In this document: in pieces, positions 3,561-20,097 of the stretch
Layout of the letters: every line of letters starts with the position of its first letter
Numbering within the stretch: the first letter of the stretch is position 1
Assembly (NCBI GenBank): GCA_049619235.1
Contig: JBMZMP010000001.1
Coordinates: 1-36,719, forward strand
Reading direction: 5' to 3'
DNA length: 36,719 bases
Source of the DNA: Thermoplasmatota archaeon
Lineage (GTDB): Archaea; Thermoplasmatota; E2; JACPAO01; JAHFTW01
Notes under the pieces: model-generated
The model's input: the letters and a program-made list of their open reading frames with translations, nothing else
Databases searched by the model: none
What the model was told of the DNA's origin: nothing
Made by a program: the position numbers and the translations under genes

Positions 3561-4517
3561 ATGGGCTGGCGAAACGAGCATGCCGTGGCTCCCATCGTGG
3601 GCGTCATCATGCTGCTTGGCTCCACAATCGTGCTCGGTGCGGGCATTTGGTTCATCGCCTCCGGCCTTTCGGAGGGCGACTTGGATACGCAGTACTCCGT
3701 CCCAAGCGTTCTCAAAGCTGATGATGGAAGCGCCCTGTACGTCACGCTCATCGCCGGAGAATCGGTCCCATTGGATCGGGCGCGACTGCAGGTCTCCATC
3801 GATGGTGTCGCCGCTGAGTATCCCATGACCGTGTACGCCAACGAAGTCAGAGATGGCAAGACCTGGCGCGCGGGGGACCACTTGTGTGTCGTCGGTAGAT
3901 TGCCCGGTTGCCTTGTGAATTCAGGCAACACCGTGAGTGCACAAATCGTGGTCCACGAAACCCTCATCTGGAAAGGCTCCTGGCTCCTGAACCCTTGGAG
4001 CATCGACTCCTCAGGTACCCTGGTTTCCCATTGTGCCGGGCCCGTTTTCGTGGACGTGCTTGGAACCTCCATCACGTATGGCGCCGGCGGGCCAGACATT
4101 CCTGTCCGCGTTGACTTGGACTCCGGCAACGGATTCGAACCCCTCTTTGGCGGCGACCCAGTAGCGGGTGGCGAGTCGTACAACATTGCATGGAGCACCC
4201 TCGGAACCGAATTCCGCCTGCAAGGTCGCGCCGACTATCTCTCCTTCCACGCCAGCTACGCAAGCGGCATAGGGGACGACCACGTTCTCGTGCTCTTGGA
4301 CGGCGACCCGGTTCCGGACATCCCCGCCTATGGGAACCAAGCAGGCATCGAAGACTTCCTCACCTCGTACATTGACGTGGCCAGTGGCACCGTGACCCTG
4401 GATCCGTCCCAGGCGATTCTGCTCTTCGAATTCACATCCAACCTGGCAAGCCCCGCCGCCGACTGGCAGGACCTCGTGGTGGTCGTGGACTTCGAAGGGC
4501 CGCTCTGTGATGCGTAG
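3561..4517 (+). CDS. Archaeal type IV pilin-like protein (class III signal peptide, DUF1628-like N-terminus) with an uncharacterised C-terminal region
   Basis: The N-terminus MGWRNEHAVAPIVGVIMLLGSTIVLGAGIWFIASGL resembles the archaeal prepilin motif (charged residues, then A-V-x-P-[IV]-[IV]-G-V plus a hydrophobic helix). The following LYVTLIAGESVPLDRARLQVSIDG resembles the DUF1628 core. The start could instead be TTG 3543. Confidence 0.6.
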   Translation: MGWRNEHAVAPIVGVIMLLGSTIVLGAGIWFIASGLSEGDLDTQYSVPSVLKADDGSALYVTLIAGESVPLDRARLQVSIDGVAAEYPMTVYANEVRDGKTWRAGDHLCVVGRLPGCLVNSGNTVSAQIVVHETLIWKGSWLLNPWSIDSSGTLVSHCAGPVFVDVLGTSITYGAGGPDIPVRVDLDSGNGFEPLFGGDPVAGGESYNIAWSTLGTEFRLQGRADYLSFHASYASGIGDDHVLVLLDGDPVPDIPAYGNQAGIEDFLTSYIDVASGTVTLDPSQAILLFEFTSNLASPAADWQDLVVVVDFEGPLCDA

Positions 4518-4731: not shown

Positions 4732-6291
4732 ATGACGGACCCCATTGCCGCCCTTCGCGAACGCAAAGCCAAAGCCATGCAAGGCGGCGGCGCAGCACGC
4801 ATCGAAGCCCAGCACAAGAAAGGCAAATACACGGCGCGCGAACGCCTCGATTTGCTCCTTGACAAGGACTCCTTCGTGGAAATGGATCCATTCGTCCGCC
4901 ACCAAGCCAAACACTTCGGCATGGACAAAATGCAATTCGACGGCGACGGCGTCGTCACCGGGCACGGCACCGTCAAAGGCCGCCTCGTCTTCGTGTACAG
5001 TCAAGACTTCACCGTCCTTGGCGGCAGCCTCGGCAACGCCACCGGCAAAAAAATTGCCAAAGTCATCGAGCAAGCCATCAGTTGCGGAGCCCCCGTCATT
5101 GGGTTCAACGACTCCGGCGGCGCCCGCATCCAAGAAGGCGTCGCAAGCCTCGCCGGATACGGTGACATCTTCTTCAACAACGTCAAAGCAAGCGGCGTCA
5201 TCCCACAAATCTCCGTCATCGTGGGACCCTCCGCAGGCGGCGCCGTGTACAGCCCCGCCCTCACCGACTTCACCATCATGACCCAAGACACGAGCCACAT
5301 GTTCGTCACCGGTCCAGACGTGGTGAAAACCGTCACGGGGGAACAAGCCACGCAGGAAGAACTCGGCGGCGCAAGCGTCCACGAAGTCAAATCCGGCGTC
5401 GCCAGTTTCAGCGGCCTCGACGAGGACGAAACCATCGAAATGATTCGCACCCTCCTCGAATACCTCCCCAGCAACAACCTCGCAGACCTCCCAATTAAAG
5501 ACACCGGGGATGAACGGGGCCGCATGGACGAAGACATCCAAAACATCGTCCCACGCGAACCCAACAAACCCTACGACGTCCGGGAAGTGGTCAACCGCGT
5601 CATGGACCTCGGATCCTTCTTCGAAATCCAACCAAAATGGGCACAAAACATCGTCGTCGGCTTTGCCCGCCTCGACGGCATCCCCGTCGGCGTGGTTGCA
5701 AACCAACCCGCCGTCCTCGCAGGTGCCCTCGACATTGAAGCCAGCATCAAGGGCGCGAAATTCATTCGCTTCTGCGACTCCTTCAACATCCCACTCATCA
5801 CCATGGTGGACGTGCCCGGCTTCCTGCCCGGCATGGGCCAAGAACACGGCGGCATCATCCGAAACGGCGCCAAACTCCTGTACGCATACTGTGAAGCCAC
5901 CGTGCCCAAACTGCAAGTGGTGCTCCGCAAGTCCTACGGTGGCGCCTACATCGTCATGAGCAGCAAGCACGTAGGAAGCGACCTCAACCTCGCCTGGCCA
6001 GGCACCGAAATCGCCGTCATGGGAGCCGCCGGAGCCGTGGAAATCATCCACCGCCGGAAACTCCTCGCCCTCGCCGAAGAGGACCCGGAAGCAGCCGCGA
6101 AGATGAAAGCCGAATTCGAAGCCGAATACGCAGAGAAATTCAGCAACCCCTACGCCGCCGCGGAAATGGGTTGGGTGGACGACATCATCGAGCCACGGGA
6201 AACCCGCCCGCGCCTCATCGCTGCCCTCCTGCCGCTCCTCAACAAGCGCGAACAACGCCCCGCCAAGAAACACGGACTCACGCCACTTTAG
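4732..6291 (+). CDS. pccB: Acyl-CoA carboxylase carboxyltransferase subunit (PccB / 12S-type; acetyl/propionyl-CoA)
   Basis: 519 aa. Motifs seen: QHKKGKYTARERLDLLLD, FTVLGGSLG, GFNDSGGARIQEG, VIVGPSAGGAVYSPALTDF, ANQP..LAG.LD and GGAYIVM, which are typical of the carboxyltransferase beta subunit. Confidence 0.9.
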   Translation: MTDPIAALRERKAKAMQGGGAARIEAQHKKGKYTARERLDLLLDKDSFVEMDPFVRHQAKHFGMDKMQFDGDGVVTGHGTVKGRLVFVYSQDFTVLGGSLGNATGKKIAKVIEQAISCGAPVIGFNDSGGARIQEGVASLAGYGDIFFNNVKASGVIPQISVIVGPSAGGAVYSPALTDFTIMTQDTSHMFVTGPDVVKTVTGEQATQEELGGASVHEVKSGVASFSGLDEDETIEMIRTLLEYLPSNNLADLPIKDTGDERGRMDEDIQNIVPREPNKPYDVREVVNRVMDLGSFFEIQPKWAQNIVVGFARLDGIPVGVVANQPAVLAGALDIEASIKGAKFIRFCDSFNIPLITMVDVPGFLPGMGQEHGGIIRNGAKLLYAYCEATVPKLQVVLRKSYGGAYIVMSSKHVGSDLNLAWPGTEIAVMGAAGAVEIIHRRKLLALAEEDPEAAAKMKAEFEAEYAEKFSNPYAAAEMGWVDDIIEPRETRPRLIAALLPLLNKREQRPAKKHGLTPL

Positions 6292-6299: not shown

Positions 6300-9200
6300 A
6301 TGACCAAAGAACCCATTGCAATCATCGGCACCGGTTGCGTCCTCCCAGACGCCCCCGACGTTGCCACATTCTGGAACAACCTCCTCGCGGGCAAAAGCAG
6401 CATCACCGAGGTGCCCCGCGAACGCTGGGACCCCACCCTCTACCACTCCGACGACAAAACACTCCCCGACATGACGTACACCAAAATCGGTGGCTTCGTC
6501 GCAGACGACGCGTTCAACGGCATCGACTACCGCATGCCGCCAAAAGTCGTGGACCAAATCGACCCCTGCCAACGCTGGGCCCTCGCCGCAACCCGGCAAG
6601 CGTTCCAAAACGCAGGTTACGCAACCGGCCTCAAGGGCGACGAAGGGAAGGCATTCGACCGCGACCGCTGCGCAGTGATCGTCGGGAACGCAATGGGTGG
6701 CGAAGTGCAAAAAGCGGTCAGCAAGCGGGTGTACTGGGCCGAAGCAGAAGCAGCCATCCGAGCCGACTCCAAGTTCCAAACCCTTCCCCAGGAAGCCCAG
6801 GACGAAATCCTCTCGCGGGCACAAGCTGAATTCAAAGCCACAACCAACCCCATCACCGAAGACACCTTGCCCGGCCACCTCAGCAACGTGGTCGCCGGCC
6901 GCATCGCCAACGCCTTCGATTTGGGTGGCAAAAACTTCACCACGGACGCCGCTTGCGCAAGCAGCTTCGCAGCCCTCGACGCTGCGGTCAAAACACTGCG
7001 CGACCAAGACAGCGACCTCGTCATCTGGGGCGGCACCGACCGCTCCATGGATGTCACGGCCTACATCCAATTCAGCAAAATTGGGGCCCTCAGTCCCGAC
7101 GGCAGCCGCCCCTTCGATGAAGGCGCAAACGGCTTCGTCATGGGCGAAGGATGTGCCATGTTCCTCCTCAAGCGCCTCAGCGACGCGGAACGGGACGGCG
7201 ACAACATCATCGCCACCATTCGCGGCATCGGAAGCAGCAGCGACGGCAAAGGGAAAGGCATCACCGCCCCCAACCCCAGTGGCCAAGTGAAAGCAGTCGA
7301 ACGCGCCTACAAAGACGCCGGCGTGGACCCCGCCACCATTGGCTACATGGAAGCCCACGGCACCAGCACCCCCGTCGGTGACCCCGTGGAACTGGAATCC
7401 GCCAGCAAAGGCATCAGTGCCACCACCACGCAAACCATCGCCCCCGGCAGCATCCGCGTGGGGAGCGTCAAGAGCAACATCGGCCACCTCAAGGCAGCAG
7501 CCGGCGCCGCCGGCGTCCTGAAGGCCGCCCTGGCCCTCAAAGAAGGGGTCCTTCCGCCAAGCATCAACGTCAAGACCCTCAACCCCCGCATTGACTGGGA
7601 AAACAGCGTCTTCAAAGTGCAAACCACGCAAGAAGGCTGGGTCCAAGAAGGCCCACGACGCGCCGCCGTCAGCAGCTTCGGCTTTGGCGGCACCAACTTC
7701 CACGTGGTCCTCGAGCAACACGTCCCCGGCGCATGGCAAGCCCCCGTGGCAACGCAAGCGGTCGCCGAAACCCGCACCGAGTTGGACCTTGCAGGGTTTC
7801 AAGCAGGCTTCAACGCCAGCCTCGAACCAGAAGCGGTCGTCCTAAGCTCCGCACAAGCCGCAAGCCTCGACCTCCAAACCACAAACTTCGCGGAAACTGG
7901 CACCGGCGCACGTCTCCGGGACCAACTGCACCCGCTCACCAAAGAAGGGGTTGCTGCAAACGAACGAGTCGCATTCCACGTGGCCGACGTGGCTGAGATT
8001 CCAAAGAAACTTGGACTCGCCCAGAAAGCCATGGAAAACCCCGCCGCAGCCCGCCTTGCCTTCAACCAAGGCGTCTTCCTCGGACGCGGTGCGCCAGAAG
8101 GCAAAGTGGCGTTCCTGTTCCCCGGACAAGGCACCCAGTACGTCAACATGGGCCGCGACCTCGCCGAAAAATACGAGATCGTCCGCAAAACCTTCGAAGA
8201 AGCCGATGAGGCACTCTTCGACGACATCGGCGGCAAACTCACTGACATTCTCTGGCCCACACCCAACACGGAAGAAAACCAAAAGGCCAGCAACGAGAAA
8301 CTCAAACTCACCGAATACACGCAACCCGCGGTTCTCGCAATGGACCTTGCCTGCCTGCGCCTGTTGCAAAGCTGGGGCATCAAGCCCGACATGGTCGCCG
8401 GGCACAGCCTCGGCGAATACGGTGCCCTCATGGCAGCCGGTGTGTTGAGCCTCAAAGACGCCCTACATGCAGTCGCTGCCCGCGGTCGCGAAATGGCAAA
8501 CGTGGACCTCCCGGACCTTGGCAAAATGGCCAGCATCAGCGCCGACTGGCACGACGTGCAAGGGTTCCTGGACGGCGTGGACGGCTACGTCATCCCCGCC
8601 AACAAGAACTGCCCAAGCCAAACCGTCATCGCAGGCAGCACCGAAGGCGTCGAGAACGCCGTCGCCAAAATCAGTGAAGCCGGCATCCAAACCATGTTCC
8701 TGCCGGTGAGCGCCGCGTTCCACAGTGAAATCGTCGCCCCCGCCAGCGGACCGCTTCGCAAAGTGCTCGGGCGCCTCGACGTCCAATCCCCGAAAGTGCC
8801 CGTCATCACCAACGTTGGCGCTCGCTTGTACGAAGACGACCCGGAATGGATTCGGGACAACCTCGCCGTCCAAGTTGCAAGCCCCGTTGACTGGATTGAC
8901 ACCATTGAGAAAATGTACGCCGAGGGCGTTCGGTACTTCATCGAAGTGGGCCCCAAGCGCGCGCTCAGCGGCTTCGTGATGGACATCCTGAAAGACAAAC
9001 AAGACGTCCGCGCCATGTTCGCCAACCACCCCAAGAAAGGTGGCATTCAATCCTTGAACGAAATGTACGCCTTCCTCGGCGCCAGCGGATTTGCACCCCA
9101 AGTGCACGCCCTCGATGACGCGGACGTATACACCAAATCGTTCCTCGACCCAGTGGCTGCATTCACGAAGGAAGTGGCCGTTGCTGCTCAGCCCCCCATC

Positions 9201-12200
9201 ACGGCACCCGCAAGCAACGACCCCCGAACCGAAGTCATAGCAAATGCCCTCACCGAATTGAACGCCACGCTCGCCTCCATGAACGGAGTCACCGCTGCGC
9301 CGCAAGCCGCGACTGGCACCGTGGACAGCCAACTGCAAGCCAAACTGGACGCGTACGGCATTTGCCTCGACGACATCACCATCAGCGGCGCAGCCGTCGG
9401 ACTCCCCGGCGGACAACTGTTTGGCGAAGACAACTGGGACCGCATCCTACGAGGCGACAACCTCATCAGCGAAGTGCCCGAGCCGCACCGAGCCGGCATG
9501 GTGGACCGAAACATCGTTCGCCTCGTCAAAGGCAGCGACGGACAAGCCACGTTCCAATCCATCCAAGACATGGCGCAAGTGATTCACCTCGCTGGGCGCC
9601 GCGGCGGATTCGACCTCGCGGAATGGGGCATCGACATGGCCGACGTGTTGGACAAAACCAGCCAGTACGCCATGGCAGCCGGACTCGAAACACTGCGCGA
9701 CGCAGGCATTCCCCTGCAACGCACGTACATGCAAACCAGCACCGGCAGCTTCCTTCCAAAAGAATGGAAACTCCCCGAGCCCCTGCGTGACGGCACCGGC
9801 ATCATCTTCGCCAGTGCATTCCCCGGGTACGACAACCTCATTGACGAAATCAGCCGCCACCTCGCGGACAAATACGCCGGTGCCAGCCTCGACCGGCTGC
9901 AAGCGTTGTACGAAGAACTCGGAGGCGTCGTCTCGGACGACGAGCAAAAAGAGCGACTGACGAAGCTGTTCGACGAAGAATTCGAACGCCTGCAAGCAGT
10001 CCTCCCCGATCAAGGAGCAGCGCGGTACGAATTCAACCGAAAATTCCTCTTCACCGTCCTCAGCATGGGGCACAGCCAACTGGCACAACTCATTGGAGCC
10101 CGTGGCCCCAACACGCAAGTGAACGCCGCCTGCGCCAGCACCACGCAAGCCATCGGCATCGCCGAAGACTGGATTCGCACCGGCCGCGCCCGCCGCGTCC
10201 TCGTGGTTGGCGCAGATGACGCCACCAGCGACAACATGCTCCCATGGATTGGCAGCGGGTTCCTCGCAAGCGGAGCCGCCACCACCAAACGCAACGTGGC
10301 CGACGCCGCATTGCCCTTCGACGCCCGCCGCCACGGCATGATCATCGGCATGGGAGCCGTCGGCGTCCTCGTGGAAGCCGCTCCCGAAGTGGAAGCCCGC
10401 GGCATGCGACCCATTGCCAACTTGCTCGCCACCAAGGTCAGCAACTCCGCATTCCACGGCAGCCGCCTCGACATCGAACACATCGCCAGCGAAATGCAAG
10501 CGTTGGTCGGCAAGGCCTTGGCCACCCGACGCGCCACTGGCCGAGCGGCCAACGGCGAAACCGCGGAGAGCCTCGCGGCATCCACGGTCTTCATGTCCCA
10601 CGAAACCTACACGCCCGCTCGCGGCGGAAGCGCCGCAGCAGAAATCCACGCACTCCGTGCCACCTTCGGCGCCGGCGCAGACAGGGTCGTCATCGCCAAC
10701 ACCAAGGGCTTCACCGGCCACCCGCAAGGCGCGGGCATCGAAGACGCAGTCGTCCTCAAGTGTCTGCAACGAGGCCAAGTGCCACCCATTCCGAACCTCA
10801 AGGAACCGGACGCGGAACTCGGCAACCTCAACCTCAGCAAAGGCGGCAACTACGACATTCGGTACGGACTACGTCTTGCCGCTGGATTTGGAAGCCAAGT
10901 GGCCATGACCTTCACGGAATTGGTCGCCCGCGAGAACGAACGCTTCGCCAACCAAGCCCAATACGATGCCTGGCTCGCAAGCGTCAGCGGCATGCCAAGC
11001 GCCGTCGTGGAAACCGTGCATCGTACGCTCCGCATCGTGGACCAAGGCGCCCCCGAACGGGTGGCCCCTGCCGCAAAGCCGGAACCAGTTGCGGTGCAAA
11101 CACCAACGACGCCGGCCGTCCCCGCCGTGGACGCGCTTCCGACGGTCATCGACCTTGTGGCCAAGAAAACGGGATACCCCGTGGAAATGCTGGAACCCGA
11201 CCTCGACCTTGAAGCGGACCTTGGCATTGACACCGTGAAGCAAGCAGAACTGTTTGGCGAACTGCGCGAACATTTCGGTGTACCCTTGAGTGACGACTTG
11301 AAACTCAGTGACTACAACACGCTCCGCAAAGTGGCTGATTACATGGGCGGCGGAAACGGTGCCAGCGCACAGCCTGCGGCTGCCCCTGCCACCACCACTT
11401 CTACCGCCCCCAATGTGACGGTTCCAACGCCTCAACCTGTTGACCCCGCCGCGTCCGCGCCTTCTGCGGATGTGCTTGCAACCGTCACCGCCATGATTGC
11501 CGAAAAGACCGGCTACCCACCAGAAATGCTCGAGCCCGCACTTGATCTCGAAGCGGACCTCGGCATTGACACGGTCAAGCAAGCCGAGCTCTTTGGCGAA
11601 CTGCGCGAACACTTCGGCATTCCCCTCAGCGACGACCTCAAGCTTAGCGACTACAACACCTTGGAGAAAGTGGCAGCGTACATGGGAGGCGGCAATGCCG
11701 CACCGACACCCGCAACGCCTCCTCCCGCCGCAACGCCCACCCTCGCCCCAATTGTTGGGGCACAAAGCCCCGCGGCGCCAGCTGGGGACGTTCTTGCCAA
11801 AGTGACCGCCGTCGTAGCCGAAAAAACCGGCTACCCCGCGGAAATGCTCGAAGCGGACCTGGACCTCGAAGCGGACCTGGGCATTGACACCGTCAAGCAA
11901 GCGGAACTCTTCGGGGAACTGCGGGAAATGTTCGGCGTCTCCCTCAGCGAGGACTTGAGCCTCGCCGATTACAACACGCTCCGCAAAGTCGCATCCTACA
12001 TGTCCGGTGGTGCCGGCACCGAAACGGCCGCAAGTGCTCCCCCCACTCCCGCCGTGGCGCCTGCTCAACCAGGCGCGGAAACGGCTCCGGCGGCGGATGC
12101 GGGCGACGTGCTTGCCAAAGTCACCGCCGTGGTGGCTGAGAAAACCGGCTACCCCGTCGAGATGCTCGAACCTGCATTGGACCTTGAAGCGGATCTCGGC

Positions 12201-15200
12201 ATTGACACGGTCAAACAAGCAGAGCTCTTTGGCGAACTCCGGGAAATGTTCGGAGTCCCCCTGAGCGAAGACCTGAGCCTCGCCGACTACAACACTCTCG
12301 AAAAAGTGGCGGGCTACATGGCCGCCGGTGGAGCCTCCGCTACAAACACTGCCACCGAAGCGGCCGTTGAACAAGCAACCGAGGCTGCACCTTCCGGCAT
12401 CCAACGGTTGGTCCCCTTCGCCCGCCCACAAGCATGCGAAGAAGACAACCACCTGCCACAAGGACAACTCCTCGTGGTGGGCGACGCGGACACGGAATTC
12501 ATGGACGCCTGGAAGGCCGCCGGGTTCAAACCCACCATGCACCACGCGGACGCACCCGTGGGCATCCTGTGCCTCGCAACCCGCCCCGGCGAAAACGCCC
12601 ACACGCGGGCAGCGGCACTCTTCGAAGCCGCCAAAGCCAACCCCAACGCCTTCGTGGTCGTTGCCACCGCACAAGACGGAAGCCACGGGCTCCGCAAACC
12701 TCGTGACGCCGGCATGGCCGCAGTTTCAGGGCTTGGAAAAGCATTGAACAAGGAACTCCAAGGGCTCGTCAAGGTCATCGACGTGGACCCCGCCGACCGC
12801 GACGGACCCAAGCGCGTGGTGCAAGAAGCCATGCACGGCGGATTGCGCTGCGAAGTGTGCTTCGACCGCAACGGCAACCGCTGCGTCGTTGAAGTGGCTC
12901 CGGAAAGCCAACAAGGCACCCCCGACGTCGCCGGCAAAACGCTCGTCGTCAGCGGAGGCGCACAAGGCATCACCGCTGAACTGCTACTCCAACTCGCGCC
13001 GCAACACCCGAACCTCGTACTCCTTGGCCGCACACCGCTCCCACGGGAAGTGGCAGACTGGGCCAACTGGACCGACGAGCAATGGCGCGCCGAAGAACTC
13101 CGCGTCCTGGAAGAACTGAAAGCGAGTGGCGAAAAAGCCACCCCTGTGATGGTCAAGAAGCGCGTGGACCCCATGCGAAAAGCCGTGGAAGTGCAACGAA
13201 ACATCACCTCCATGCAAGCAGCCGGAGCCACCGTTTCCTACGCCGCAGTGGACGTCACGGACGCCGCCGGCGTCGCACAAGTGGTGTCCGAAGCCCGAGA
13301 CAAATTCGGCTCCATTGACGGCGTCATTCACGCCGCCGGCATGGAAATCAGCAAATTCCTCGCCGACAAACCACGGGAACAATTCGACCTCGTGTTTGGC
13401 ATCAAACACGATGGTATGAACGCCCTCGTGGCCGCCACGGAACAGGACGACCTGTCCATCCTCGCGGCCTTCGGAAGCGTTGCCGGACGGTTTGGAAACA
13501 TCGGCCAAGTGGACTACTCCGCCGCCAACGAATACCTCTGCAAAGAAGTCAAGCGCGTTGCACAAGCCCGCGGCATCCCCGCGGCATTCACCATCGCGTG
13601 GGGCCCCTGGGGGGAAGTGGGCATGGCAACCCGCGGCGGCATCATGACAGTCCTCAAGGAAAGCGGCGTCACACCCATCCCGACTGCAGACGGCATTGCG
13701 GCGTTCATGAACGAACTCGGCACGCCCGGGGTTCGCGAAAGCGTCGTGTGCGGAGAGATTGGAGGACTGGACGCGGACGGCCAAGTGGTCGCACACGTCT
13801 GGGACCCAGCCGTTGCGGAAGCAGAAAGCTGGCTGCAAACCGCCCCCGATCGGTTCAGGCTCCTGGACTCCATCGAAGCCATCAACACGGAACGCATCGT
13901 TGCCCGGTTGGTCATGGACCGCGTCAAGGACCCATACCTGATGGACCACGCCATTGACGGCGTGCCCCTCCTGCCCGGCGTCTTCGGTCTTGAAGCGTTT
14001 GCAGAAGCAAGCCGCCTCCTGGTCCCAGAAGACCTCGACTTCATCGGCGCCGAAGCGGTGCGATTTGCCGCGCCACTCAAGCAACACAAAGACACCCCCG
14101 TGACCGCGCGCATCGAAGCCCTGGTCTTGGAGCGAGGCGAAGAGACAAAGGTGCGATGCCAACTGACAAGCCAATTCGTCGGCCCAGACGGCCGCCCACT
14201 CGGCGAACCCAAACTGCACTTCGAAGCGGTGACCCGCTTCGGCACTGGACGCACCATGCGCACCGGAGACGTTCCCGTCTCGGATCGAAGCCGCACCAAC
14301 GTCTACCCGCCATTCTTCCACGGACCCAGCTTCCAAGTGCTCCCCGCAGCCGGGCCGCTTGGCGAGGAATCCATTGGCGAATTTGTCTTCCCCGAAGCTC
14401 CCTGCTTCGCCGACGGCAACGCCACGTTCCTCAGCCACCCCCTCGTGACGGAGGCCCTGTTCCAACTCTGCGGTCTCCGCACCATGGACGTGGACCAACG
14501 CATGAGCCTCCCCGCCGCCATCGAACGCATCGACGTATTCCCCGGCGCCACGGGACACGGCCGGCTCTGGTCCGCCTACAAGGGCAAGGAAGATTTGCAC
14601 CAATTCGACGCGGCCGCCTGCACCGATGACGGCACAGTCCTCATCCGAATGGTGGGCTACCAAATGATTGAAACTGGCCCCATCGCAGACAGCGAACCCG
14701 CGGAGCCAGAAGGTGCAACGGATCCGGCCCCAGCGCCGTCCGAACCGGCCCTACCCGAACCACCGGCCCACGTGCATCTACCAGACGTGGAAGGACTCAT
14801 GTTCCAGTGGGAGCCGGTCAAAGACGCACCGCTCAACGACTGGTTCTCCGCCGCGGAAAAGGAAACCCACGCCGGATTCAAAACCAGCAAGCGCGCCGCC
14901 GAATGGCGCGCCGGCCGCATCGCCGCCAAACGCGCCGTCGCAGCCAGCACAGGGGCCCCACACAACGAAATCGAACTCCGAGCCAACGACGCAGGCGCAC
15001 CCAGTCTTTACGTCCGTGGGAAACCAAGCCCTGTCCGCGTCAGCATCACGCACCGCGACGGCGTTGCCATCGCCGCCTTTGGAAACGACGCCATCGGCAT
15101 CGACTTGGAAACCGTCGAACCCCGCAGCGAACCGTTCTGGGAACAAGCCTTCGGAGCCGACGAACGACGACACCTTGGTGCCATGGCCAACAAGGACGTG

Positions 15201-15413
15201 GCCGCAGCGTGTGCCTGGGCCGCGAAGGAAGCCTGCCTGAAGCGGGTTGGAACCGGCCTCGATTGTGCCCTGCACGACTTGGTGGTTCGCCCCGAAGGCG
15301 GCGGCGCGCACGTCTCTGGACCGTTCGGCCAATGGTACGTCCGCTTCTGGGACCTTGATGGCCGCGTTCTCGCCGTGACCACGCCCCAATTTGATGTGCA
15401 GGTGAACGCATAG
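6300..15413 (+). CDS. Iterative type I polyketide / PUFA-synthase-like megasynthase, 3037 aa: KS-AT-KS-ACPx4-KR-DH-PPTase
   Basis: ORF 6171-15413 was trimmed to ATG 6300 (MTKEPIAIIGTGCVLPDA...), 8 nt after the pccB stop and preceded by AGGTG (6290-6294). The domain motifs are listed in the sub-features below. The stop TAG (15411-15413) overlaps the GTG start of bioY. Confidence 0.9.
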   Translation: MTKEPIAIIGTGCVLPDAPDVATFWNNLLAGKSSITEVPRERWDPTLYHSDDKTLPDMTYTKIGGFVADDAFNGIDYRMPPKVVDQIDPCQRWALAATRQAFQNAGYATGLKGDEGKAFDRDRCAVIVGNAMGGEVQKAVSKRVYWAEAEAAIRADSKFQTLPQEAQDEILSRAQAEFKATTNPITEDTLPGHLSNVVAGRIANAFDLGGKNFTTDAACASSFAALDAAVKTLRDQDSDLVIWGGTDRSMDVTAYIQFSKIGALSPDGSRPFDEGANGFVMGEGCAMFLLKRLSDAERDGDNIIATIRGIGSSSDGKGKGITAPNPSGQVKAVERAYKDAGVDPATIGYMEAHGTSTPVGDPVELESASKGISATTTQTIAPGSIRVGSVKSNIGHLKAAAGAAGVLKAALALKEGVLPPSINVKTLNPRIDWENSVFKVQTTQEGWVQEGPRRAAVSSFGFGGTNFHVVLEQHVPGAWQAPVATQAVAETRTELDLAGFQAGFNASLEPEAVVLSSAQAASLDLQTTNFAETGTGARLRDQLHPLTKEGVAANERVAFHVADVAEIPKKLGLAQKAMENPAAARLAFNQGVFLGRGAPEGKVAFLFPGQGTQYVNMGRDLAEKYEIVRKTFEEADEALFDDIGGKLTDILWPTPNTEENQKASNEKLKLTEYTQPAVLAMDLACLRLLQSWGIKPDMVAGHSLGEYGALMAAGVLSLKDALHAVAARGREMANVDLPDLGKMASISADWHDVQGFLDGVDGYVIPANKNCPSQTVIAGSTEGVENAVAKISEAGIQTMFLPVSAAFHSEIVAPASGPLRKVLGRLDVQSPKVPVITNVGARLYEDDPEWIRDNLAVQVASPVDWIDTIEKMYAEGVRYFIEVGPKRALSGFVMDILKDKQDVRAMFANHPKKGGIQSLNEMYAFLGASGFAPQVHALDDADVYTKSFLDPVAAFTKEVAVAAQPPITAPASNDPRTEVIANALTELNATLASMNGVTAAPQAATGTVDSQLQAKLDAYGICLDDITISGAAVGLPGGQLFGEDNWDRILRGDNLISEVPEPHRAGMVDRNIVRLVKGSDGQATFQSIQDMAQVIHLAGRRGGFDLAEWGIDMADVLDKTSQYAMAAGLETLRDAGIPLQRTYMQTSTGSFLPKEWKLPEPLRDGTGIIFASAFPGYDNLIDEISRHLADKYAGASLDRLQALYEELGGVVSDDEQKERLTKLFDEEFERLQAVLPDQGAARYEFNRKFLFTVLSMGHSQLAQLIGARGPNTQVNAACASTTQAIGIAEDWIRTGRARRVLVVGADDATSDNMLPWIGSGFLASGAATTKRNVADAALPFDARRHGMIIGMGAVGVLVEAAPEVEARGMRPIANLLATKVSNSAFHGSRLDIEHIASEMQALVGKALATRRATGRAANGETAESLAASTVFMSHETYTPARGGSAAAEIHALRATFGAGADRVVIANTKGFTGHPQGAGIEDAVVLKCLQRGQVPPIPNLKEPDAELGNLNLSKGGNYDIRYGLRLAAGFGSQVAMTFTELVARENERFANQAQYDAWLASVSGMPSAVVETVHRTLRIVDQGAPERVAPAAKPEPVAVQTPTTPAVPAVDALPTVIDLVAKKTGYPVEMLEPDLDLEADLGIDTVKQAELFGELREHFGVPLSDDLKLSDYNTLRKVADYMGGGNGASAQPAAAPATTTSTAPNVTVPTPQPVDPAASAPSADVLATVTAMIAEKTGYPPEMLEPALDLEADLGIDTVKQAELFGELREHFGIPLSDDLKLSDYNTLEKVAAYMGGGNAAPTPATPPPAATPTLAPIVGAQSPAAPAGDVLAKVTAVVAEKTGYPAEMLEADLDLEADLGIDTVKQAELFGELREMFGVSLSEDLSLADYNTLRKVASYMSGGAGTETAASAPPTPAVAPAQPGAETAPAADAGDVLAKVTAVVAEKTGYPVEMLEPALDLEADLGIDTVKQAELFGELREMFGVPLSEDLSLADYNTLEKVAGYMAAGGASATNTATEAAVEQATEAAPSGIQRLVPFARPQACEEDNHLPQGQLLVVGDADTEFMDAWKAAGFKPTMHHADAPVGILCLATRPGENAHTRAAALFEAAKANPNAFVVVATAQDGSHGLRKPRDAGMAAVSGLGKALNKELQGLVKVIDVDPADRDGPKRVVQEAMHGGLRCEVCFDRNGNRCVVEVAPESQQGTPDVAGKTLVVSGGAQGITAELLLQLAPQHPNLVLLGRTPLPREVADWANWTDEQWRAEELRVLEELKASGEKATPVMVKKRVDPMRKAVEVQRNITSMQAAGATVSYAAVDVTDAAGVAQVVSEARDKFGSIDGVIHAAGMEISKFLADKPREQFDLVFGIKHDGMNALVAATEQDDLSILAAFGSVAGRFGNIGQVDYSAANEYLCKEVKRVAQARGIPAAFTIAWGPWGEVGMATRGGIMTVLKESGVTPIPTADGIAAFMNELGTPGVRESVVCGEIGGLDADGQVVAHVWDPAVAEAESWLQTAPDRFRLLDSIEAINTERIVARLVMDRVKDPYLMDHAIDGVPLLPGVFGLEAFAEASRLLVPEDLDFIGAEAVRFAAPLKQHKDTPVTARIEALVLERGEETKVRCQLTSQFVGPDGRPLGEPKLHFEAVTRFGTGRTMRTGDVPVSDRSRTNVYPPFFHGPSFQVLPAAGPLGEESIGEFVFPEAPCFADGNATFLSHPLVTEALFQLCGLRTMDVDQRMSLPAAIERIDVFPGATGHGRLWSAYKGKEDLHQFDAAACTDDGTVLIRMVGYQMIETGPIADSEPAEPEGATDPAPAPSEPALPEPPAHVHLPDVEGLMFQWEPVKDAPLNDWFSAAEKETHAGFKTSKRAAEWRAGRIAAKRAVAASTGAPHNEIELRANDAGAPSLYVRGKPSPVRVSITHRDGVAIAAFGNDAIGIDLETVEPRSEPFWEQAFGADERRHLGAMANKDVAAACAWAAKEACLKRVGTGLDCALHDLVVRPEGGGAHVSGPFGQWYVRFWDLDGRVLAVTTPQFDVQVNA
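6309..7722 (+). other. Domain: ketosynthase 1 (approximate bounds)
   Basis: TTDAACASSFAALD (Cys codon 6954-6956), EAHGTSTPVGDP, KSNIGHLKAAAGAAG and FGFGGTNFHVVLEQH give an intact Cys-His-His triad. Confidence 0.85.
8103..9030 (+). other. Domain: acyltransferase (malonyl-type; approximate bounds)
   Basis: Motifs seen: FLFPGQGTQYVNMG, VAGHSLGEYGALMAAG (Ser codon 8406-8408), TEYTQPAVLA and PVSAAFHSEIV. Confidence 0.8.
9375..10925 (+). other. Domain: divergent second ketosynthase with retained active-site Cys (approximate bounds)
   Basis: ITISGAAVGLPGG at the N-terminus, NAACASTTQAIGIAEDW (Cys codon 10131-10133), MSHETYTP (His), NTKGFTGHPQGAGIED (His) and GFGSQVAMTF. A long helical insertion (RHLADKYAG...ARYEFNRKF) precedes the Cys. 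Confidence 0.7.
11133..12320 (+). repeat. Four tandem in-frame ACP-like carrier domains (11133-11345, 11466-11684, 11784-12002, 12102-12320) separated by Ala/Pro/Thr-rich linkers
   Basis: Each unit reads (V/L)A(K/T)VTA.(V/I)AEKTGYP.EMLE..LDLEADLGIDTVKQAELFGELRE.FG..LS.DL.L.DYNTL.KVA.YM. Unit spacing is 339, 318 and 318 nt. The position normally held by the phosphopantetheinyl-Ser is Thr in all four units (codons 11232-11234 ACC, 11571-11573 ACG, 11889-11891 ACC, 12207-12209 ACG). Confidence 0.85.
12400..13730 (+). other. Domain: ketoreductase with N-terminal structural subdomain (approximate bounds)
   Basis: Motifs seen: KTLVVSGGAQGITAELLLQL (Rossmann fold), DGVIHAAGM and FGSVAGRFGNIGQVDYSAANEYL (Tyr codon 13515-13517). 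Confidence 0.8.
13850..14670 (+). other. Domain: PKS-type double-hotdog dehydratase (approximate bounds)
   Basis: LMDHAIDGVPLLPGV matches HxxxGxxxxP (His codon 13947-13949). FFHGPSFQ resembles YGPxF, and HPLVTEALFQL resembles D/ExxxQ. Confidence 0.7.
14800..15410 (+). other. Domain: C-terminal Sfp/EntD-like 4'-phosphopantetheinyl transferase (approximate bounds)
   Basis: Motifs seen: EWRAGRIAAKRAV, VRVSITHRDGVAIAAF, AIGIDLETVE (Asp codon 15102-15104) and AWAAKEACLKRVG (Lys-Glu codons 15225-15230). These are the metal-binding and W/FxxKEAxxK motifs of PPTases. Confidence 0.7.
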
Positions 15414-16213
15414 TGGAGTACCGATTCGGAAACCTCGAGCAAACGCTCACCGGCTGGCCCACCCGGCTCCTCGCAAGCGCAGGCTTCGCAGGCATCCTCT
15501 CCCTCCTCGCCCTCATCAGTTTCCCCCTCCCCTGGACCCCGGTCCCCTTCTCCATGATGCCCCTGGGACTTCTCCTCGCAGGCGCATACCAGCGCCCGCT
15601 GTGGGGCTTCCTCTCCGTCGCCATGTACCTCGTGGCCGCAGGCATCGGCGCACCGATCTTTGCGGACGGGGAATCTGGCTGGAGCTGGTTCCTCGGCGCA
15701 AGCGGCGGCTACCTGTTCGGTTTCCTCCTCGTTTCGCCGCTCGTCGGTTGGTACATGCGGGAACGACGCGGCATGCTCCCCACCAAGTGGGTCGCCTTTG
15801 TCATCAGCGCGTTCACGCTCGCCGTCCTCGGTGGCCTCGGCGCCATCATTTGGATGACCACCACCGGAAGCAGCATCAGCAGCCTCGACGGAGACACGCA
15901 AAACTGGAACATGGGCCGTAGCACCCTCTGGGTTCTCCTGTTCCTCATCGTCGCCATGACCGCCCTGACGCTCACGTTCCTGCGCCGATACCGGCAACAA
16001 AGCCAAGAAGCGCTGAACCTGTTTCTTGTCATGATGGGCGCCATCATTGTGCTCCACACCTGCGGCGTCCTGGTCCTCTGGATGGCCACCTCCCTCACAT
16101 TCATGGAGGCATTGTTGCTTGGAAGCCTCGTCTTCTTACCCTTCGATGTACTCAAAAGCGGCCTCGCCGTCGCCCTCTCTCTGCCCTTCGTCCCCCCGGT
16201 GAACCATGACTGA
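15413..16213 (+). CDS. bioY: Biotin transporter BioY (solitary S-component)
   Basis: The GTG start shares one base with the megasynthase stop. Sequence PVPFSMMPLGLLLAGAYQRPLWGFLSVAMYLVAAGIGAPIFADG...GASGGYLFGFLL...FLPFDVLKSGLAVAL matches the BioY pattern. At 266 aa it is longer than usual, with a central insertion. Confidence 0.75.
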   Translation: MEYRFGNLEQTLTGWPTRLLASAGFAGILSLLALISFPLPWTPVPFSMMPLGLLLAGAYQRPLWGFLSVAMYLVAAGIGAPIFADGESGWSWFLGASGGYLFGFLLVSPLVGWYMRERRGMLPTKWVAFVISAFTLAVLGGLGAIIWMTTTGSSISSLDGDTQNWNMGRSTLWVLLFLIVAMTALTLTFLRRYRQQSQEALNLFLVMMGAIIVLHTCGVLVLWMATSLTFMEALLLGSLVFLPFDVLKSGLAVALSLPFVPPVNHD

Positions 16214-17774
16214 CATCAACAAAATTCTCGTTGCCAACCGCGGCGAAATCGCCCTTCGCGTAATGCGAACCGCCCGCGAACTCGGAATTGCAACCGTCGC
16301 CGTCCACAGCCCCGTGGACGCCAAGGCTGCCCACGTGCGCTTCGCCGACGAAGCCGTGGATCTTGGCGGCGACGCCGCATCCGAGAACTACCTCAACATC
16401 GACAAATTGGTCGAAGTTTGCAGCGACCACGGCGTGGACGCCGTGCACCCCGGCTACGGTTTCCTCAGCGAACGAGACGACTTCGTGGACGCACTTAGCA
16501 AAGCCAACGTCACATTCATCGGCCCACCCGCAAGCGCCATCCGAATCCTTGGGGACAAAGTGGCCAGCAAGGAAGCGGCCCGCAAGGCCGGCGTGCCCGT
16601 GGTTCCCGGCCTTGACAAATTCATCAACACCGTGGACGAGGCGAAGGAAGTGGCGGAGCTCACCGGTTACCCGCTCATCATCAAAGCCGCATTCGGTGGC
16701 GGCGGCATGGGCATGCTCGTGGTGGAGAAAGAGGAAGACCTGGAAGCTTCCCTCATCGCCACGCAACGGCAAGCCAAAGCCGCCTTTGGCCGCGGCGAAG
16801 TGTTCATTGAGAAATTCATTGGGCGCCCCCGTCACATCGAATTCCAAATGGTTGCTGACCAACACGGCCACGCCGTGCACTTCGGGGAACGGGAATGCAG
16901 CATCCAACGCCGCCACCAGAAACTCATCGAAGAAGCGCCAAGCCCCATTGTCACGGAAGAGGAACGGCAAGAAGTTGGTGGCAGCGTCGCCAAATTGCTC
17001 ATCGACGTGGGCTACACCAACGCGGGCACCGCTGAATTCCTGTACGAAGATGGCAACTTCTTCTTCAACGAAGTCAACACCCGCCTGCAAGTGGAACACC
17101 CTGTCACGGAGCAGGTGTACGGCATGGACCTCGTGGCGGAGCAAATCCGCATCGCCCGCGGCGAGGAACTCGGCTACGACCAAGCATGGGTGAATGCCCG
17201 CAAGCGCGGCTGGAGCATCGAGTGCCGCATCAACGCCGAGGACCCCGCGCAGAACTTCATGCCCACCCCAAGCCTCGTCAAGCGACACAACCCCCCCATG
17301 GGCAGCGGCATCCGCTTGGACACGTTCCTCTACCCCGGATTCCAAGTGCCAGCCATTTACGACTCCATGGTCGCCAAACTGATCACCACCGGCAGCGACC
17401 GCGCCGAAGCCATTCGCAAAATGGAACGCGCCCTCGACGAATACGACCTCGGAGACATGACCACCAACAAGGAACTCCACGCGCTCCTCATGCGCAACGA
17501 ACATTTCCGCGCCGGTGACATGACCACGAAGTTCCTCGACGAACACGGCATCATTGACCAATACCTCGGCAACCAAGCCGGCGCAAGCGACGCAGCAAAG
17601 CGCCGCCTCGCTGCCATCGCCGCGGTGCTGGCCGAACAACCCGGCGGCATCGACGCCATGGTTGCAAAGAACTACGGGTTCAAGGCTGGCGTGGGCGTGG
17701 ACGAACACGGCCGCAGAAAGCTCAACGCATGGGGCCAACGGTCTCGCGGCGAAAGCAACGGAAGGTGGGCCTAA
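16206..17774 (+). CDS. accC: Biotin carboxylase subunit of acyl-CoA carboxylase
   Basis: 522 aa. Motifs seen: ILVANRGEIALRVMRTARELGI, HPGYGFLSE, YPLIIKAAFGGGGMGM, HIEFQMVADQHG, ERECSIQRRHQKLIEE and EVNTRLQVEHPVTE. The start overlaps the bioY stop by 8 nt, and GGTGA (16198-16202) lies upstream. Confidence 0.92.
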   Translation: MTDINKILVANRGEIALRVMRTARELGIATVAVHSPVDAKAAHVRFADEAVDLGGDAASENYLNIDKLVEVCSDHGVDAVHPGYGFLSERDDFVDALSKANVTFIGPPASAIRILGDKVASKEAARKAGVPVVPGLDKFINTVDEAKEVAELTGYPLIIKAAFGGGGMGMLVVEKEEDLEASLIATQRQAKAAFGRGEVFIEKFIGRPRHIEFQMVADQHGHAVHFGERECSIQRRHQKLIEEAPSPIVTEEERQEVGGSVAKLLIDVGYTNAGTAEFLYEDGNFFFNEVNTRLQVEHPVTEQVYGMDLVAEQIRIARGEELGYDQAWVNARKRGWSIECRINAEDPAQNFMPTPSLVKRHNPPMGSGIRLDTFLYPGFQVPAIYDSMVAKLITTGSDRAEAIRKMERALDEYDLGDMTTNKELHALLMRNEHFRAGDMTTKFLDEHGIIDQYLGNQAGASDAAKRRLAAIAAVLAEQPGGIDAMVAKNYGFKAGVGVDEHGRRKLNAWGQRSRGESNGRWA

Positions 17775-18277
17775 TGCGGTACGCATTCCGACTGGGGCAA
17801 CACACCCACAAATTGACGCGCCAAGAACGCGCCGAGGGGCCCCTGTACAAGATTGAAGAATCCGAGTACGAACCCGCTGTGGAAGCCAAAGGCAACGGCA
17901 GCTACCGCGTGGTCGTGGACGATCAAGTCTTCGAGTTCTCCCTAAAAGACGGTGTCCTCTACGAAGGCGCCAGCCCACTGGACTTGGAAATTAGCCGCGC
18001 CAAGCCGGAACTGATTCGCGCCGGCGGCAAAGGCCGCAAAGGCGACGGACGCATCAAACCCCCGATGCCGGGCAAGATTGTGGAAGTGCCAGTCAAGGAA
18101 GGTGACGAAGTCCAAGAGGGCCAAGTGGTCATCATCTTGGAAGCCATGAAGATGCAAAACGACATCAAGGCGCCCTTCGGAGGCATCGTCCAAAAGGTGC
18201 ACGTGCAGGAAGGTTCGAACGTGGAAGCAACCACCGTCATGGTAGACATTGCTCCCCACGCGGAGCCCGAAGCATGA
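17774..18277 (+). CDS. accB: Biotin carboxyl carrier protein (biotinyl domain)
   Basis: ORF 17729-18277 was trimmed to ATG 17774, which overlaps the accC stop (TAATG). The C-terminus PMPGKIVEVPVKEGDEVQEGQVVIILEAMKMQNDIKAPFGGIVQKVHV carries the EAMKM biotinylation motif. Confidence 0.8.
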   Translation: MRYAFRLGQHTHKLTRQERAEGPLYKIEESEYEPAVEAKGNGSYRVVVDDQVFEFSLKDGVLYEGASPLDLEISRAKPELIRAGGKGRKGDGRIKPPMPGKIVEVPVKEGDEVQEGQVVIILEAMKMQNDIKAPFGGIVQKVHVQEGSNVEATTVMVDIAPHAEPEA

Positions 18278-19038
18278 GTGTGGACGTCGCCATCGAAGGC
18301 CGCGTGGCCACCATCACCATCAACCGCCCCGAGGCGCTCAACGCCCTCAACAGTGCAACCCTCGACGCCATCGGCGCGGCGGCGCTGGATCTACGGGACA
18401 AAGTGGACGGCATTCTTCTCACCGGTGCCGGCAAGGCCTTCGTGGCCGGTGCCGACATCGCCGAAATGAAGGACTATGGCCAGGAAGAAGCCGAAGCCTT
18501 CAGCCGGCGCGGCCAAGAGGCCTTCCAAAATCTCTCCGAATTCCCCGGCCCCGTGGTCGTTGCCATCAACGGATTCGCCCTCGGCGGCGGACTGGAATTG
18601 GCCCTCTCGGGGGACATCCTCGTTGCAAGCAACCGCGCCAAACTAGGTCTCCCTGAAACCACGCTTGCAGTGGTCCCTGGCTTCGGCGGAACGCAGCGCT
18701 TGCCCCGCCGCGTGGGCCCAGGCAATGCCAAGAAACTCTTGTTCACGGGCGGCATGATTGGCGCCGAAGAGGCGCTCCGTATGGGCCTCGTGGACGAAGT
18801 GGTGGAACCAGATGAACTGCTGGAAACCTGCCAAGGAATTTTGCAAAAGGCCCTCGCCAATGGACCCCTTGCGGTTCGGCAAGTGAAGCGCCTCGTGGAC
18901 GTTGGCTCGGACATGGAGCTCCTCGACGCCATCGACATGGAAGCAGACGCATTCGGCGACATCTTCACCACTGAGGATCAAAAGGAAGGAATGGAAGCGT
19001 TCCTTTCCAAGCGGAAGCCGGATTTCACTGGCAATTAG
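18274..19038 (+). CDS. Enoyl-CoA hydratase (crotonase family)
   Basis: 254 aa. Motifs seen: ITINRPEALNAL, LTGAGKAFVAGADI, INGFALGGGLELAL and LGLPETTLAVVPGFGGTQRL, with both catalytic Glu positions present. ATGA overlap with accB. Confidence 0.88.
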   Translation: MSVDVAIEGRVATITINRPEALNALNSATLDAIGAAALDLRDKVDGILLTGAGKAFVAGADIAEMKDYGQEEAEAFSRRGQEAFQNLSEFPGPVVVAINGFALGGGLELALSGDILVASNRAKLGLPETTLAVVPGFGGTQRLPRRVGPGNAKKLLFTGGMIGAEEALRMGLVDEVVEPDELLETCQGILQKALANGPLAVRQVKRLVDVGSDMELLDAIDMEADAFGDIFTTEDQKEGMEAFLSKRKPDFTGN

Positions 19039-19081: not shown

Positions 19082-19621
19082 CTATTTTCCGAATAAGCTC
19101 GGCAAGTGAATGAGGTACGCCCCGTCTTTGTGAACGACGATGGGGTTCTTCTCAAGGAGCCCCTTCACGTCGATGTCGTACTCGCCGGTTTCCCCAATGG
19201 TCACAGTGTCGGGCTTGTCGTCCATTTCCGTTTCGGACAAGATGGCTTCCCGGGCGCGCCTTGCGGCTTCAATGCGGGCGGGGCTGTTCACGGGCTCGTC
19301 TTCGATGCGGGGTCCGCGGGACTTTTGTTCTTGTTGGACTTGCTTCATGATTTTGCGCAAGTCCTTGGGCTTCAATTCCGCCCATCCGTCGCCGTCCGCT
19401 TCCAGTTCCTTCGCTGTTTCGGGTGCCGTGTTTTGCAGGAGGTCTGCGACCACTTTGCGGAGGTCGTTTTGTGCTTGGCCTTGGATGCGTTCCCGTTCTT
19501 CCTGGCTCACTTCCGTGGCGCTGTAAAAGAACCGGGTTCCCTTGCATTCGGGGCAGCCGCTCAGGAGCGCGCTGCTGCCTTCTTCAAAGGAAAATCCACA
19601 AGACAAGCACTGATGAGGCAC
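19082..19621 (-). CDS. Zn-ribbon protein (DUF2072/COG3364-like), conserved archaeal
   Basis: The N-terminus MPHQCLSCGFSFEEGSSALLSGCPECKGTRFFY has CxxC...CxxC. An acidic, charged middle region follows. It is linked to the DUF2073 and GTPase genes. Confidence 0.6.
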   Translation of the reverse strand: MPHQCLSCGFSFEEGSSALLSGCPECKGTRFFYSATEVSQEERERIQGQAQNDLRKVVADLLQNTAPETAKELEADGDGWAELKPKDLRKIMKQVQQEQKSRGPRIEDEPVNSPARIEAARRAREAILSETEMDDKPDTVTIGETGEYDIDVKGLLEKNPIVVHKDGAYLIHLPSLFGK

Positions 19622-19719
19622 TATGCATCACTCCGCGACGCATCGCACCTCATCATCCGACAACCTGCGGTTGCCTGGAGAAAAGCACGCTTCGCGTCCG
19701 TGTCTCCTTGACGCGGCAT

Positions 19720-20097
19720 TTACTTGCCCACCAGTTTTGTGACAATCTTTTCGTCGTCTTTGCTGACCAGTTTGAGGAGGTCTGCGGGGCCGATGACGGC
19801 CATGCGTGGGCGGCTGCCCATGACGGCGCGTTGGAGGAAGTTTTTGCCTTCTTCCATGCCGTAGGATTGCAATTCGATGCCGATGAAGCTGTCTTGGTCA
19901 ATGACCCGCATGGTTTCCGCGATGAGGTCCGCTTCTTCCTGGGGCGTGAGGCCCCGTTCGAGGATCAGGATTTTGCCCTTCGTGACTTCCTTCAAGATGA
20001 AGGCAATTTTCTCGGTTCCCGCCATGGATTCCATTTTCTCCATGGAGATGAGGTGAATCTTTGGGAAGCTTTTCTTGGTTTGACTCTTTTGTCCCAT
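19720..20097 (-). CDS. Conserved archaeal protein, DUF2073-like
   Basis: 125 aa. KIAFILKEVTKGKILILERGLTPQEEADLIAETMRVID..FIGIEL resembles the DUF2073 pattern. It lies 4 nt downstream of the GTPase gene. Confidence 0.5.
   Translation of the reverse strand: MGQKSQTKKSFPKIHLISMEKMESMAGTEKIAFILKEVTKGKILILERGLTPQEEADLIAETMRVIDQDSFIGIELQSYGMEEGKNFLQRAVMGSRPRMAVIGPADLLKLVSKDDEKIVTKLVGK

Follow-up and report, generated by a model that had tools for sequence, protein, structure and literature searches.

A 3037-residue megasynthase encoded by a Thermoplasmatota archaeon (NCBI assembly GCA_049619235.1; positions 1 to 36,719 of contig JBMZMP010000001.1, a stretch of 36,719 bp referred to here as the window) carries threonine in all four of its tandem acyl carrier protein (ACP) domains at the position where 4′-phosphopantetheine is normally attached to serine. 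As judged by translation of its open reading frame (ORF; 6300–15413, + strand) and by Pfam, the protein consists of a ketosynthase (KS1), an acyltransferase (AT), a second ketosynthase-like domain (KS2), the four ACPs, a ketoreductase (KR), a dehydratase (DH) and a fused 4′-phosphopantetheinyl transferase (PPTase), in that order. Few features of fatty-acid, polyketide and non-ribosomal peptide biochemistry are as invariant as the Ser acceptor of carrier proteins, and its change to Thr is used to inactivate ACPs. We consider it probable that the four domains are working acyl carriers which bear 4′-phosphopantetheine on the Thr hydroxyl, attached by the cognate PPTase; from comparative evidence we infer both the actual modification of Thr and the specialisation of the ACP-PPTase pair for this residue.

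The four ACPs, delimited by Pfam and by comparison of the repeats with one another, lie on the + strand at 11133–11360 (ACP1), 11472–11699 (ACP2), 11790–12017 (ACP3) and 12108–12335 (ACP4). Their Thr codons (ACC at 11232–11234, ACG at 11571–11573, ACC at 11889–11891 and ACG at 12207–12209, respectively) are all in frame and each is preceded by GAC (Asp). The PF00550 profile reached 136.5 bits (cutoff 20.8) over four stretches, which puts the number of PP-binding domains at exactly four, and the conserved Ser in (D/E)-S-(L/I/V) that is expected of this family is Thr in four of four repeats. Alignment of ACP1 with PDB entries placed the Thr on the phosphopantetheinyl-Ser of PigH ACP1 and ACP2, of the PksA ACP and of two AcpP-type ACPs. 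An AlphaFold2 model of the domain (predicted local distance difference test score 88.5) has helices at residues 2–13, 34–48, 58–61 and 64–71, with Thr34 at the start of helix II, and superposes on holo- and apo-ACPs in Foldseek with a template modelling score of ~0.8. An earlier sequence-only reading of this DNA had assigned Thr to the attachment position of all four carrier domains at these codons; the reading frame, the PDB alignments and the model bear this out, the latter two revealing no offset of the Thr from the true attachment position. The same reading had seen no other D-S-[LIV] carrier motif in the protein, and indeed the five [DEN]-S-[LIVMF] strings that occur in the megasynthase all lie outside carrier domains. 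When all six frames of the window were scanned with a broad profile covering Ser- and Thr-type ACPs, no carrier domain beyond ACP1–ACP4 was found. The 76-residue repeats share 76–87% protein identity and 74–81% DNA identity, with synonymous differences in 39–48% of the codons for identical residues, and Tandem Repeats Finder reported no DNA-level tandem array across them. The combination of high protein identity with lower DNA identity and synonymous divergence indicates that the repeats are old duplicates under purifying selection.

Relatives were collected in several ways. A word-seeded protein search produced 120 proteins with Thr in 449 of 458 ACPs, but this search favours Thr-containing words and was therefore not used to assess conservation. 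Retrieval independent of ACP words was made through non-ACP domains, using KR-DH peptide patterns, which returned 12 Thermoplasmatota loci (52–58% identity, all with Thr), and KS2 patterns, which matched at least 579 genomes, from which 80 loci were kept. The hosts of the kept loci include Thermoplasmatota, Heimdallarchaeota, Acidobacteriota, Chloroflexota, Actinomycetota (among them the cultured Planobispora takensis), Myxococcota, Spirochaetia and others. All 268 complete ACPs from the 84 loci retrieved through non-ACP domains have Thr at the site. All four Thr codons are in use there (ACG 131, ACC 111, ACT 17 and ACA 12), without a single non-synonymous change. Thr likewise occupies the site in 100% of 581 distinct family ACPs, in which the helix-II motif LEADLG(I/V)D-T-VKQAE is nearly invariant. 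No column of these 581 domains holds a conserved Ser (highest 21%), and we rejected an overlooked Ser acceptor within the domain on this ground; the Ser of LS(D/E)DL, which the sequence-only reading had regarded as a conserved alternative, is Ser in just 1% of them. We also rejected a separate Ser-type ACP gene nearby, for the window by the six-frame search and for the 84 related loci by the absence of any Ser-type ACP within 10 kb on either side. Stray Ser residues picked up by a loose regular expression in two proteins (P0041 and P0085) were outside the ACP domains according to profile-based calls. To judge from the sequences recovered, the Thr state is a family trait across bacteria and archaea, not a peculiarity of the window gene, and by its hosts it is mainly bacterial, not archaea-specific. 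Thr-type relatives were also seen in a Heimdallarchaeota metagenome-assembled genome (MAG; L021) and in a MAG labelled 'Halobacteriales' (L004), the hosts being those given by the MAG labels.

These data strongly reinforce the inference of the sequence-only reading that Thr is a selected state, neither an error nor a recent copy of one mutation: the repeats have diverged, the relatives' ACPs are Thr in 268 of 268 cases, and all four Thr codons are in use. That the synthase is decaying or inactive, or that the Thr codons stem from errors of sequencing or assembly, seems to us hardly credible, the one point in its favour being the textbook expectation that replacement of the Ser kills a carrier. 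Against it stand four independent codons in diverged repeats, the same Thr state in 84 loci from independent assemblies, a 9.1-kb ORF that is intact and an operon kept in Thermoplasmatota relatives at 52–58% protein identity. The catalytic motifs that the sequence-only reading had described as intact are present in KS1, KS2 and the PPTase, and its alternative of an inactive synthase is rejected by the purifying selection evident across the family.

Ser does occupy the site in sister synthases. An all-genome scan for DNA encoding G(I/V)D-Ser-VKQAE yielded 79 stretches with TCN and 4 stretches with AGY as the Ser codon, in the context ...LG[IV]D-S-VKQAE..., which fall in homologous yet distinct groups. 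The group from Marine Group II (MGII)/Poseidoniales has the order KS-AT-KS2-ACP2-KR with a PPTase gene next door, that from Firmicutes and Streptomyces has AT-ACP2-KR-DH plus a PPTase, that from Myxococcaceae consists of small ACP2-KR proteins, and that from a Brocadiia MAG (L176) has KS2-ACP2 with AGY-Ser. Megasynthases of at least 2600 residues with Ser-type ACPs were observed in MGII/Poseidoniales and 'Methanobacteriota' MAGs (L099, L104, L114, L117, L131, L139, L148 and L171). Thermoplasmatota-related archaea thus harbour type I synthases of two related lineages, which differ in having Ser or Thr at this site. A further Ser-type protein, P0166, is built like the window protein down to the PPTase at its end (KS-AT-KS2-ACP5-KR-DH-PPTase); its motif is of the DSVKVAE type. 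It differs from the window protein in its Ser and in sequence, the two sharing ~42% identity from KS1 to the ACPs and ~32% from KR to PPTase. Where the sequence-only reading had looked to homologues for Ser at these codons, the outcome is accordingly twofold: the family itself is all Thr, whereas Ser-bearing sister synthases exist beside it.

The two states hardly ever mix. We classified by site residue the best 150 representative proteins from an exhaustive, word-free HMMER search and found 88 to be all-Thr and 48 all-Ser, with none combining Ser and Thr; intact domains of homologous synthases have only Ser or Thr at the site. The only Ser/Thr-mixed protein seen is a metagenomic one of 752 residues (P0089), which has four Thr-type ACPs and one divergent ELGITSIK domain in which Thr replaces the Asp and Ser stands in the acceptor column. 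The lack of mixing within proteins suggests that a cluster-level factor, the PPTase, sets the state, and a site that admits only Ser or Thr and is fixed per cluster is what would be expected of a required hydroxyl nucleophile tied to such a factor. A bootstrapped neighbour-joining tree of KR domains recovered an archaeal-Thr clade (100%), an MGII-Ser clade (100%) and a core bacterial-Thr clade (99%), together with a 99% split that groups a Thr-type Stigmatella KR with the Ser-type Firmicutes/Streptomyces, a topology that implies at least three Ser/Thr changes. The deep order of the archaeal-Thr, MGII-Ser and bacterial-Thr clades has bootstrap values below 60%, so that the direction of the switches is not readable from the tree.

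Repeated switching is also what would be seen if Thr were phosphopantetheinylated without anything being specialised, Sfp-type enzymes tolerating it and the residue being a near-neutral variant on a mutational bridge between TCN and AGY codons. Both ACPs of the Candidatus Brocadiia MAG (L176, 559–585 and 871–897) have AGY-Ser, whereas the other Ser families found have TCN-Ser; since single-step interconversion of AGY and TCN needs Thr or Cys, this codon difference hints that Thr could have been a workable intermediate in the evolution from one Ser codon family to the other. Simple tolerance would fit these codons, the several changes on the KR tree and the lack of a recognisable specificity residue in the PPTase (see below), but we regard it as unlikely. 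Equivalence of the two residues predicts frequent mixing, and not one of 136 representative Ser/Thr-only proteins mixes them; in the 84 loci every one of the 268 ACPs is Thr, with P0089 as one partial exception, and Thr has persisted even though its codon has turned over completely at the synonymous level.

The presumed partner enzyme is also well preserved. The fused PPTase (14886–15353, + strand), identified by Pfam 4PPT_N and ACPS matches, by alignment with Sfp (1QR0/4MRT) and by family conservation, has the two-lobed ACPS fold and the GxD(x)E and W/FxxKE(S/A)xxK motifs of Sfp-type enzymes, and it retains the equivalents of Sfp H90, D107, E109, W147, K150, E151 and K155 (in ITHR, GIDLE and WAAKEACLK). 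Across 48 family PPTases these positions (Sfp numbering) are conserved in 96% (H90), 100% (D107, E109, W147, K150 and E151) and 98% (K155). A mutually similar Sfp-type PPTase was present in 53 of the 58 loci of at least 20 kb; it is fused to the archaeal proteins, and bacteria encode it in a gene of its own immediately downstream, in many cases following a single-chain acyl-CoA carboxylase (ACC). With an intact PPTase co-inherited and no other carrier substrate nearby, phosphopantetheinylation of Thr is the most economical reading. Of the alternatives offered by the sequence-only reading, modification of Thr by the fused PPTase is consequently the one best supported, by the intact PPTase in 53 of 58 loci and by the Ser/Thr-only site.

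The same observations bear on the idea that the Thr domains stay apo and serve as structural or docking repeats while the catalytic domains use CoA- or other thioesters. This would agree with the failure of an Escherichia coli ACP with the S36T substitution to be modified (PMC3340395), with the textbook view that archaea generally lack ACP-dependent fatty-acid synthesis, and with the comparison of PPTases described below, in which no residue explaining Thr acceptance was identified. We think it rather unlikely, because a site without need of a nucleophile would be expected to change to Ala, Gly or Asn over time, and instead it is 100% Thr here and Ser in the sisters; the whole helix-II recognition motif is nearly invariant; the PPTase is intact and co-inherited or fused, without another carrier substrate nearby; and the trait is universal in hundreds of bacterial relatives and is not archaeal. 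The last point removes the rationale of the corresponding alternative in the sequence-only reading, archaeal ACP-independent metabolism, given Thr in hundreds of bacterial genomes and Ser in MGII archaea.

It is more improbable still that Thr bears a different group or linkage, whether a CoA-derived prosthetic group in the style of the citrate-lyase and malonate-decarboxylase ACPs or a direct O-acyl (oxoester) bond. The required hydroxyl and the lack of precedent for Thr-linked phosphopantetheine are compatible with such a linkage and go no further. The partner is a standard Sfp-type PPTase with all Mg- and CoA-binding residues, the Pfam-scanned ORFs of the window included no triphosphoribosyl-dephospho-CoA machinery, Ser-type sisters of identical architecture imply the same chemistry, and a carrier without a long arm could presumably not reach six active sites.

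Several points weigh against a Thr-linked phosphopantetheine. In E. coli ACP the same substitution at the same position, S36T, gives a dead mutant that neither receives 4′-phosphopantetheine nor complements (PMC3340395), which indicates that a canonical PPTase rejects Thr; in the family described here, by contrast, Thr is the conserved wild type, and given the E. coli result a Thr-linked arm would count as a novel form of this modification. A comparison of 48 Thr-associated with 14 Ser-associated PPTases found no specificity residue that tracks the Ser/Thr state, the sole candidate column being that of Sfp L161, where Sfp itself has the 'Thr-type' residue (Leu). Finally, no report of Thr-linked phosphopantetheine, of this motif or of an archaeal PfaA-like synthase was found in the full-text literature searched, in which most subscription journals are missing.

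In the mechanism we favour, in which Thr carries the arm, the Sfp-type PPTase at the C-terminus of the megasynthase itself, or in its bacterial relatives a PPTase encoded by another gene of the operon, would transfer phosphopantetheine from CoA to the Thr that begins helix II of each ACP. Malonyl-CoA would be provided by a biotin-dependent carboxylase encoded on either side of the megasynthase, comprising carboxyltransferase (CT), biotin carboxylase (BC) and biotin carboxyl carrier protein (BCCP), together with BioY. The AT would load malonyl units, KS1 and KS2 would extend the chain iteratively, and KR and DH would process it. No enoyl reductase domain was found in the megasynthase protein, and for this reason our default guess for the product is a polyene, or else a lipid that is either long-chain and unsaturated or partly reduced.

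The corresponding catalytic domains, all on the + strand, are well defined. KS1 (6309–7724; residues 4–475; Pfam ketoacyl-synt, Ketoacyl-synt_C and KAsynt_C_assoc) has the Cys-His-His motifs DAACASS, EAHGTST and SNIGH in its translation. It is followed by an AT of malonyl-CoA:ACP type (8112–9011; residues 605–904; Pfam Acyl_transf_1, with a FabD-like TIGR00128 match) and by KS2 (9480–11024), the domain called 'CLF' by Shulse & Allen, which was recognised by Pfam ACP_syn_III and Thiolase_N matches at residues 1268–1311. Read from the translation, KS2 keeps its Cys (NAACAST) and both His residues (SHETYTP and TGHPQG), and in alignments it is 49–55% identical to its bacterial relatives. Downstream of the ACPs lie the KR (12939–13613; Pfam KR, residues 2214–2438) and a dehydratase of polyketide synthase (PKS) type (13884–14678; Pfam PKS_DH_N and PS-DH, residues 2529–2793).

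The genes flanking the megasynthase, also on the + strand, were assigned by Pfam and by synteny. The CT subunit of an acyl-CoA carboxylase (4732–6291; Pfam Carboxyl_trans, E 2.8e-194) is directly upstream, and downstream are a BioY biotin transporter component (15413–16213; Pfam BioY), BC (16206–17774), BCCP (17729–18277; Pfam Biotin_lipoyl) and an enoyl-CoA hydratase/crotonase family protein (ECH; 18274–19038; Pfam ECH_1), the last syntenic in 6 related archaeal loci. The order CT-megasynthase-BioY-BC-BCCP-ECH is syntenic across diverged archaeal MAGs, the operon being conserved in Thermoplasmatota relatives at 52–58% protein identity. In bacterial clusters a eukaryote-like single-chain ACC (1742–1826 residues) lies between synthase and PPTase, and a conserved gene of ~550 codons for an acyl-CoA-dehydrogenase-like protein is directly upstream of the synthase (for example L070, 4624–6273, and L014, 5124–6779); this protein may act as a trans-acting enoyl reductase, and the archaeal operon has the crotonase in its stead. 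A gene for a wax ester synthase/diacylglycerol acyltransferase (WS/DGAT) was noted near the Planobispora synthase.

By architecture and taxonomy the Thr family matches the Type R secondary-lipid synthases, a catalogued but uncharacterised class. Type R clusters were described as KS-MAT-'CLF'-ACP(3–6)-KR (MAT, malonyl acyltransferase) followed by a PPTase gene, sometimes with an ACC gene between synthase and PPTase as in Koribacter; they occur in Acidobacteria and Chloroflexi and their product is unidentified (Shulse & Allen, 2011; PMC3098273). The words 'serine' and 'threonine' do not occur in that paper, so the Ser/Thr state is not mentioned. The window protein shares with Type R the order KS-AT-KS2-ACP4-KR(-DH), the associated PPTase and the ACC subunits, and the bacterial relatives recovered have the same layout with ACC and then PPTase downstream and belong to the phyla of the named Type R strains (Koribacter, Solibacter, Roseiflexus and Elusimicrobium); the window differs in its C-terminally fused PPTase, in a carboxylase split into flanking subunits and in its archaeal host.

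The megasynthase also passes the NCBIfam model of the PfaA subfamily, TIGR02813 (1067.1 bits, cutoff 1010.1), and the homologues recovered include a genuine PfaA (P0080). Common to both are KS-AT-tandem ACP-KR-DH and closely similar ACPs with KTGYP and LG(I/V)D-x-(I/V)K, but PfaA ACPs have Ser (DSIKRVEIL), and PfaA lacks both a KS2 between AT and ACPs and a fused PPTase. None of the partners pfaB, pfaC (KS-CLF-DH2) or pfaD (enoyl reductase) was found among the Pfam-scanned ORFs of the window. The MGII megasynthases share KS-AT-KS2-ACPn-KR with the window protein (their loci end after KR), have the PPTase next door and, like P0166, show a similar helix-II motif, but have Ser at the attachment site; we found nothing on these MGII/Poseidoniales archaeal synthases in the full-text literature searched. 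Enediyne PksE proteins (SgcE, CalE8) are iterative type I PKSs with the order KS-AT-ACP-KR-DH-PPTase and a C-terminal fused PPTase; their only ACP is of the Ser type, KS2 is lacking, and they are accompanied by an enediyne cassette and a hot-dog thioesterase, neither of which the window contains. The window protein has four ACPs and a KS2, scores as PfaA-like and has carboxylase, BioY, crotonase and housekeeping genes as neighbours; its likeness to PksE is one of architecture only.

Tandem Thr-type ACPs (DLGIDTVKQVE) followed by KR also occur in a PKS of Stigmatella aurantiaca Sg a15 (AIS92916.1), and the orthologous locus of S. erecta has a PPTase in the cluster. This system differs from that of the window in being spread over several proteins with another gene organisation, and its KR branches with those of the Ser-type Firmicutes/Streptomyces. 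AIS92916.1 is presumably part of the polyunsaturated fatty acid (PUFA)-like PKS for the polyene dawenol (Osswald et al., 2014), a compound that the strain produces, and this would speak for working Thr-type carriers. The 'fun' cluster of Lactobacillus reuteri R2lc encodes AT-ACP (funD), KR (funE), PPTase (funF) and ACC (funH-K), and its predicted product is a polyene fatty acid (PMC6498181); the Ser-type Firmicutes clusters with AT-ACPn-KR-DH and PPTase, with or without ACC (L123, L165 and others), resemble it in gene content.

The remaining genes of the window, as far as the Pfam-scanned ORFs show, are housekeeping genes for Suf, arginine synthesis and Pst/PhoU. GC content is uniform (0.56–0.64), and a horizontally acquired, compositionally odd island was therefore unsupported. 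An ORF at 3543–4517 (+ strand) encodes an archaeal type IV pilin N-terminal domain and is the sole direct archaeal marker in the window besides the similarity to Thermoplasmatota MAGs. After the crotonase gene come three overlapping ORFs of ~200–230 codons (19106–19711, 19423–20109 and 20096–20743), which matched nothing in Pfam or NCBIfam and have no equivalent in the archaeal loci related to the window. A 767-residue ORF (27898–30201, − strand) combines a MazE/AbrB-type domain (residues 443–486) with a PhoU domain (residues 575–666), its N-terminal 440 residues being unassigned; it adjoins the Pst phosphate-transport genes and overlaps a 333-residue ORF on the + strand.

If Thr is indeed the acceptor, the family would provide a new acceptor residue for phosphopantetheinylation in a large and strongly conserved group of proteins, together with PPTases of altered acceptor specificity, of possible use as orthogonal pairs for labelling or activation. 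More tentatively, and with somewhat less than even confidence, we suggest that O-(4′-phosphopantetheinyl)-threonine is a natural, undescribed modification, and that the Thr-ACPs and their co-inherited PPTases are mutually specific and insulated from housekeeping AcpS/Sfp and perhaps from ACP phosphodiesterases, across two domains of life and at least 579 species-representative genomes, with a self-activating type I synthase in otherwise ACP-less archaea among them. The window adds an archaeal, self-activating member, with its PPTase fused, to a catalogued synthase family, and offers a handle on a widespread lipid or polyene pathway in soil Acidobacteriota, Chloroflexota and Actinomycetota and in uncultured archaea.

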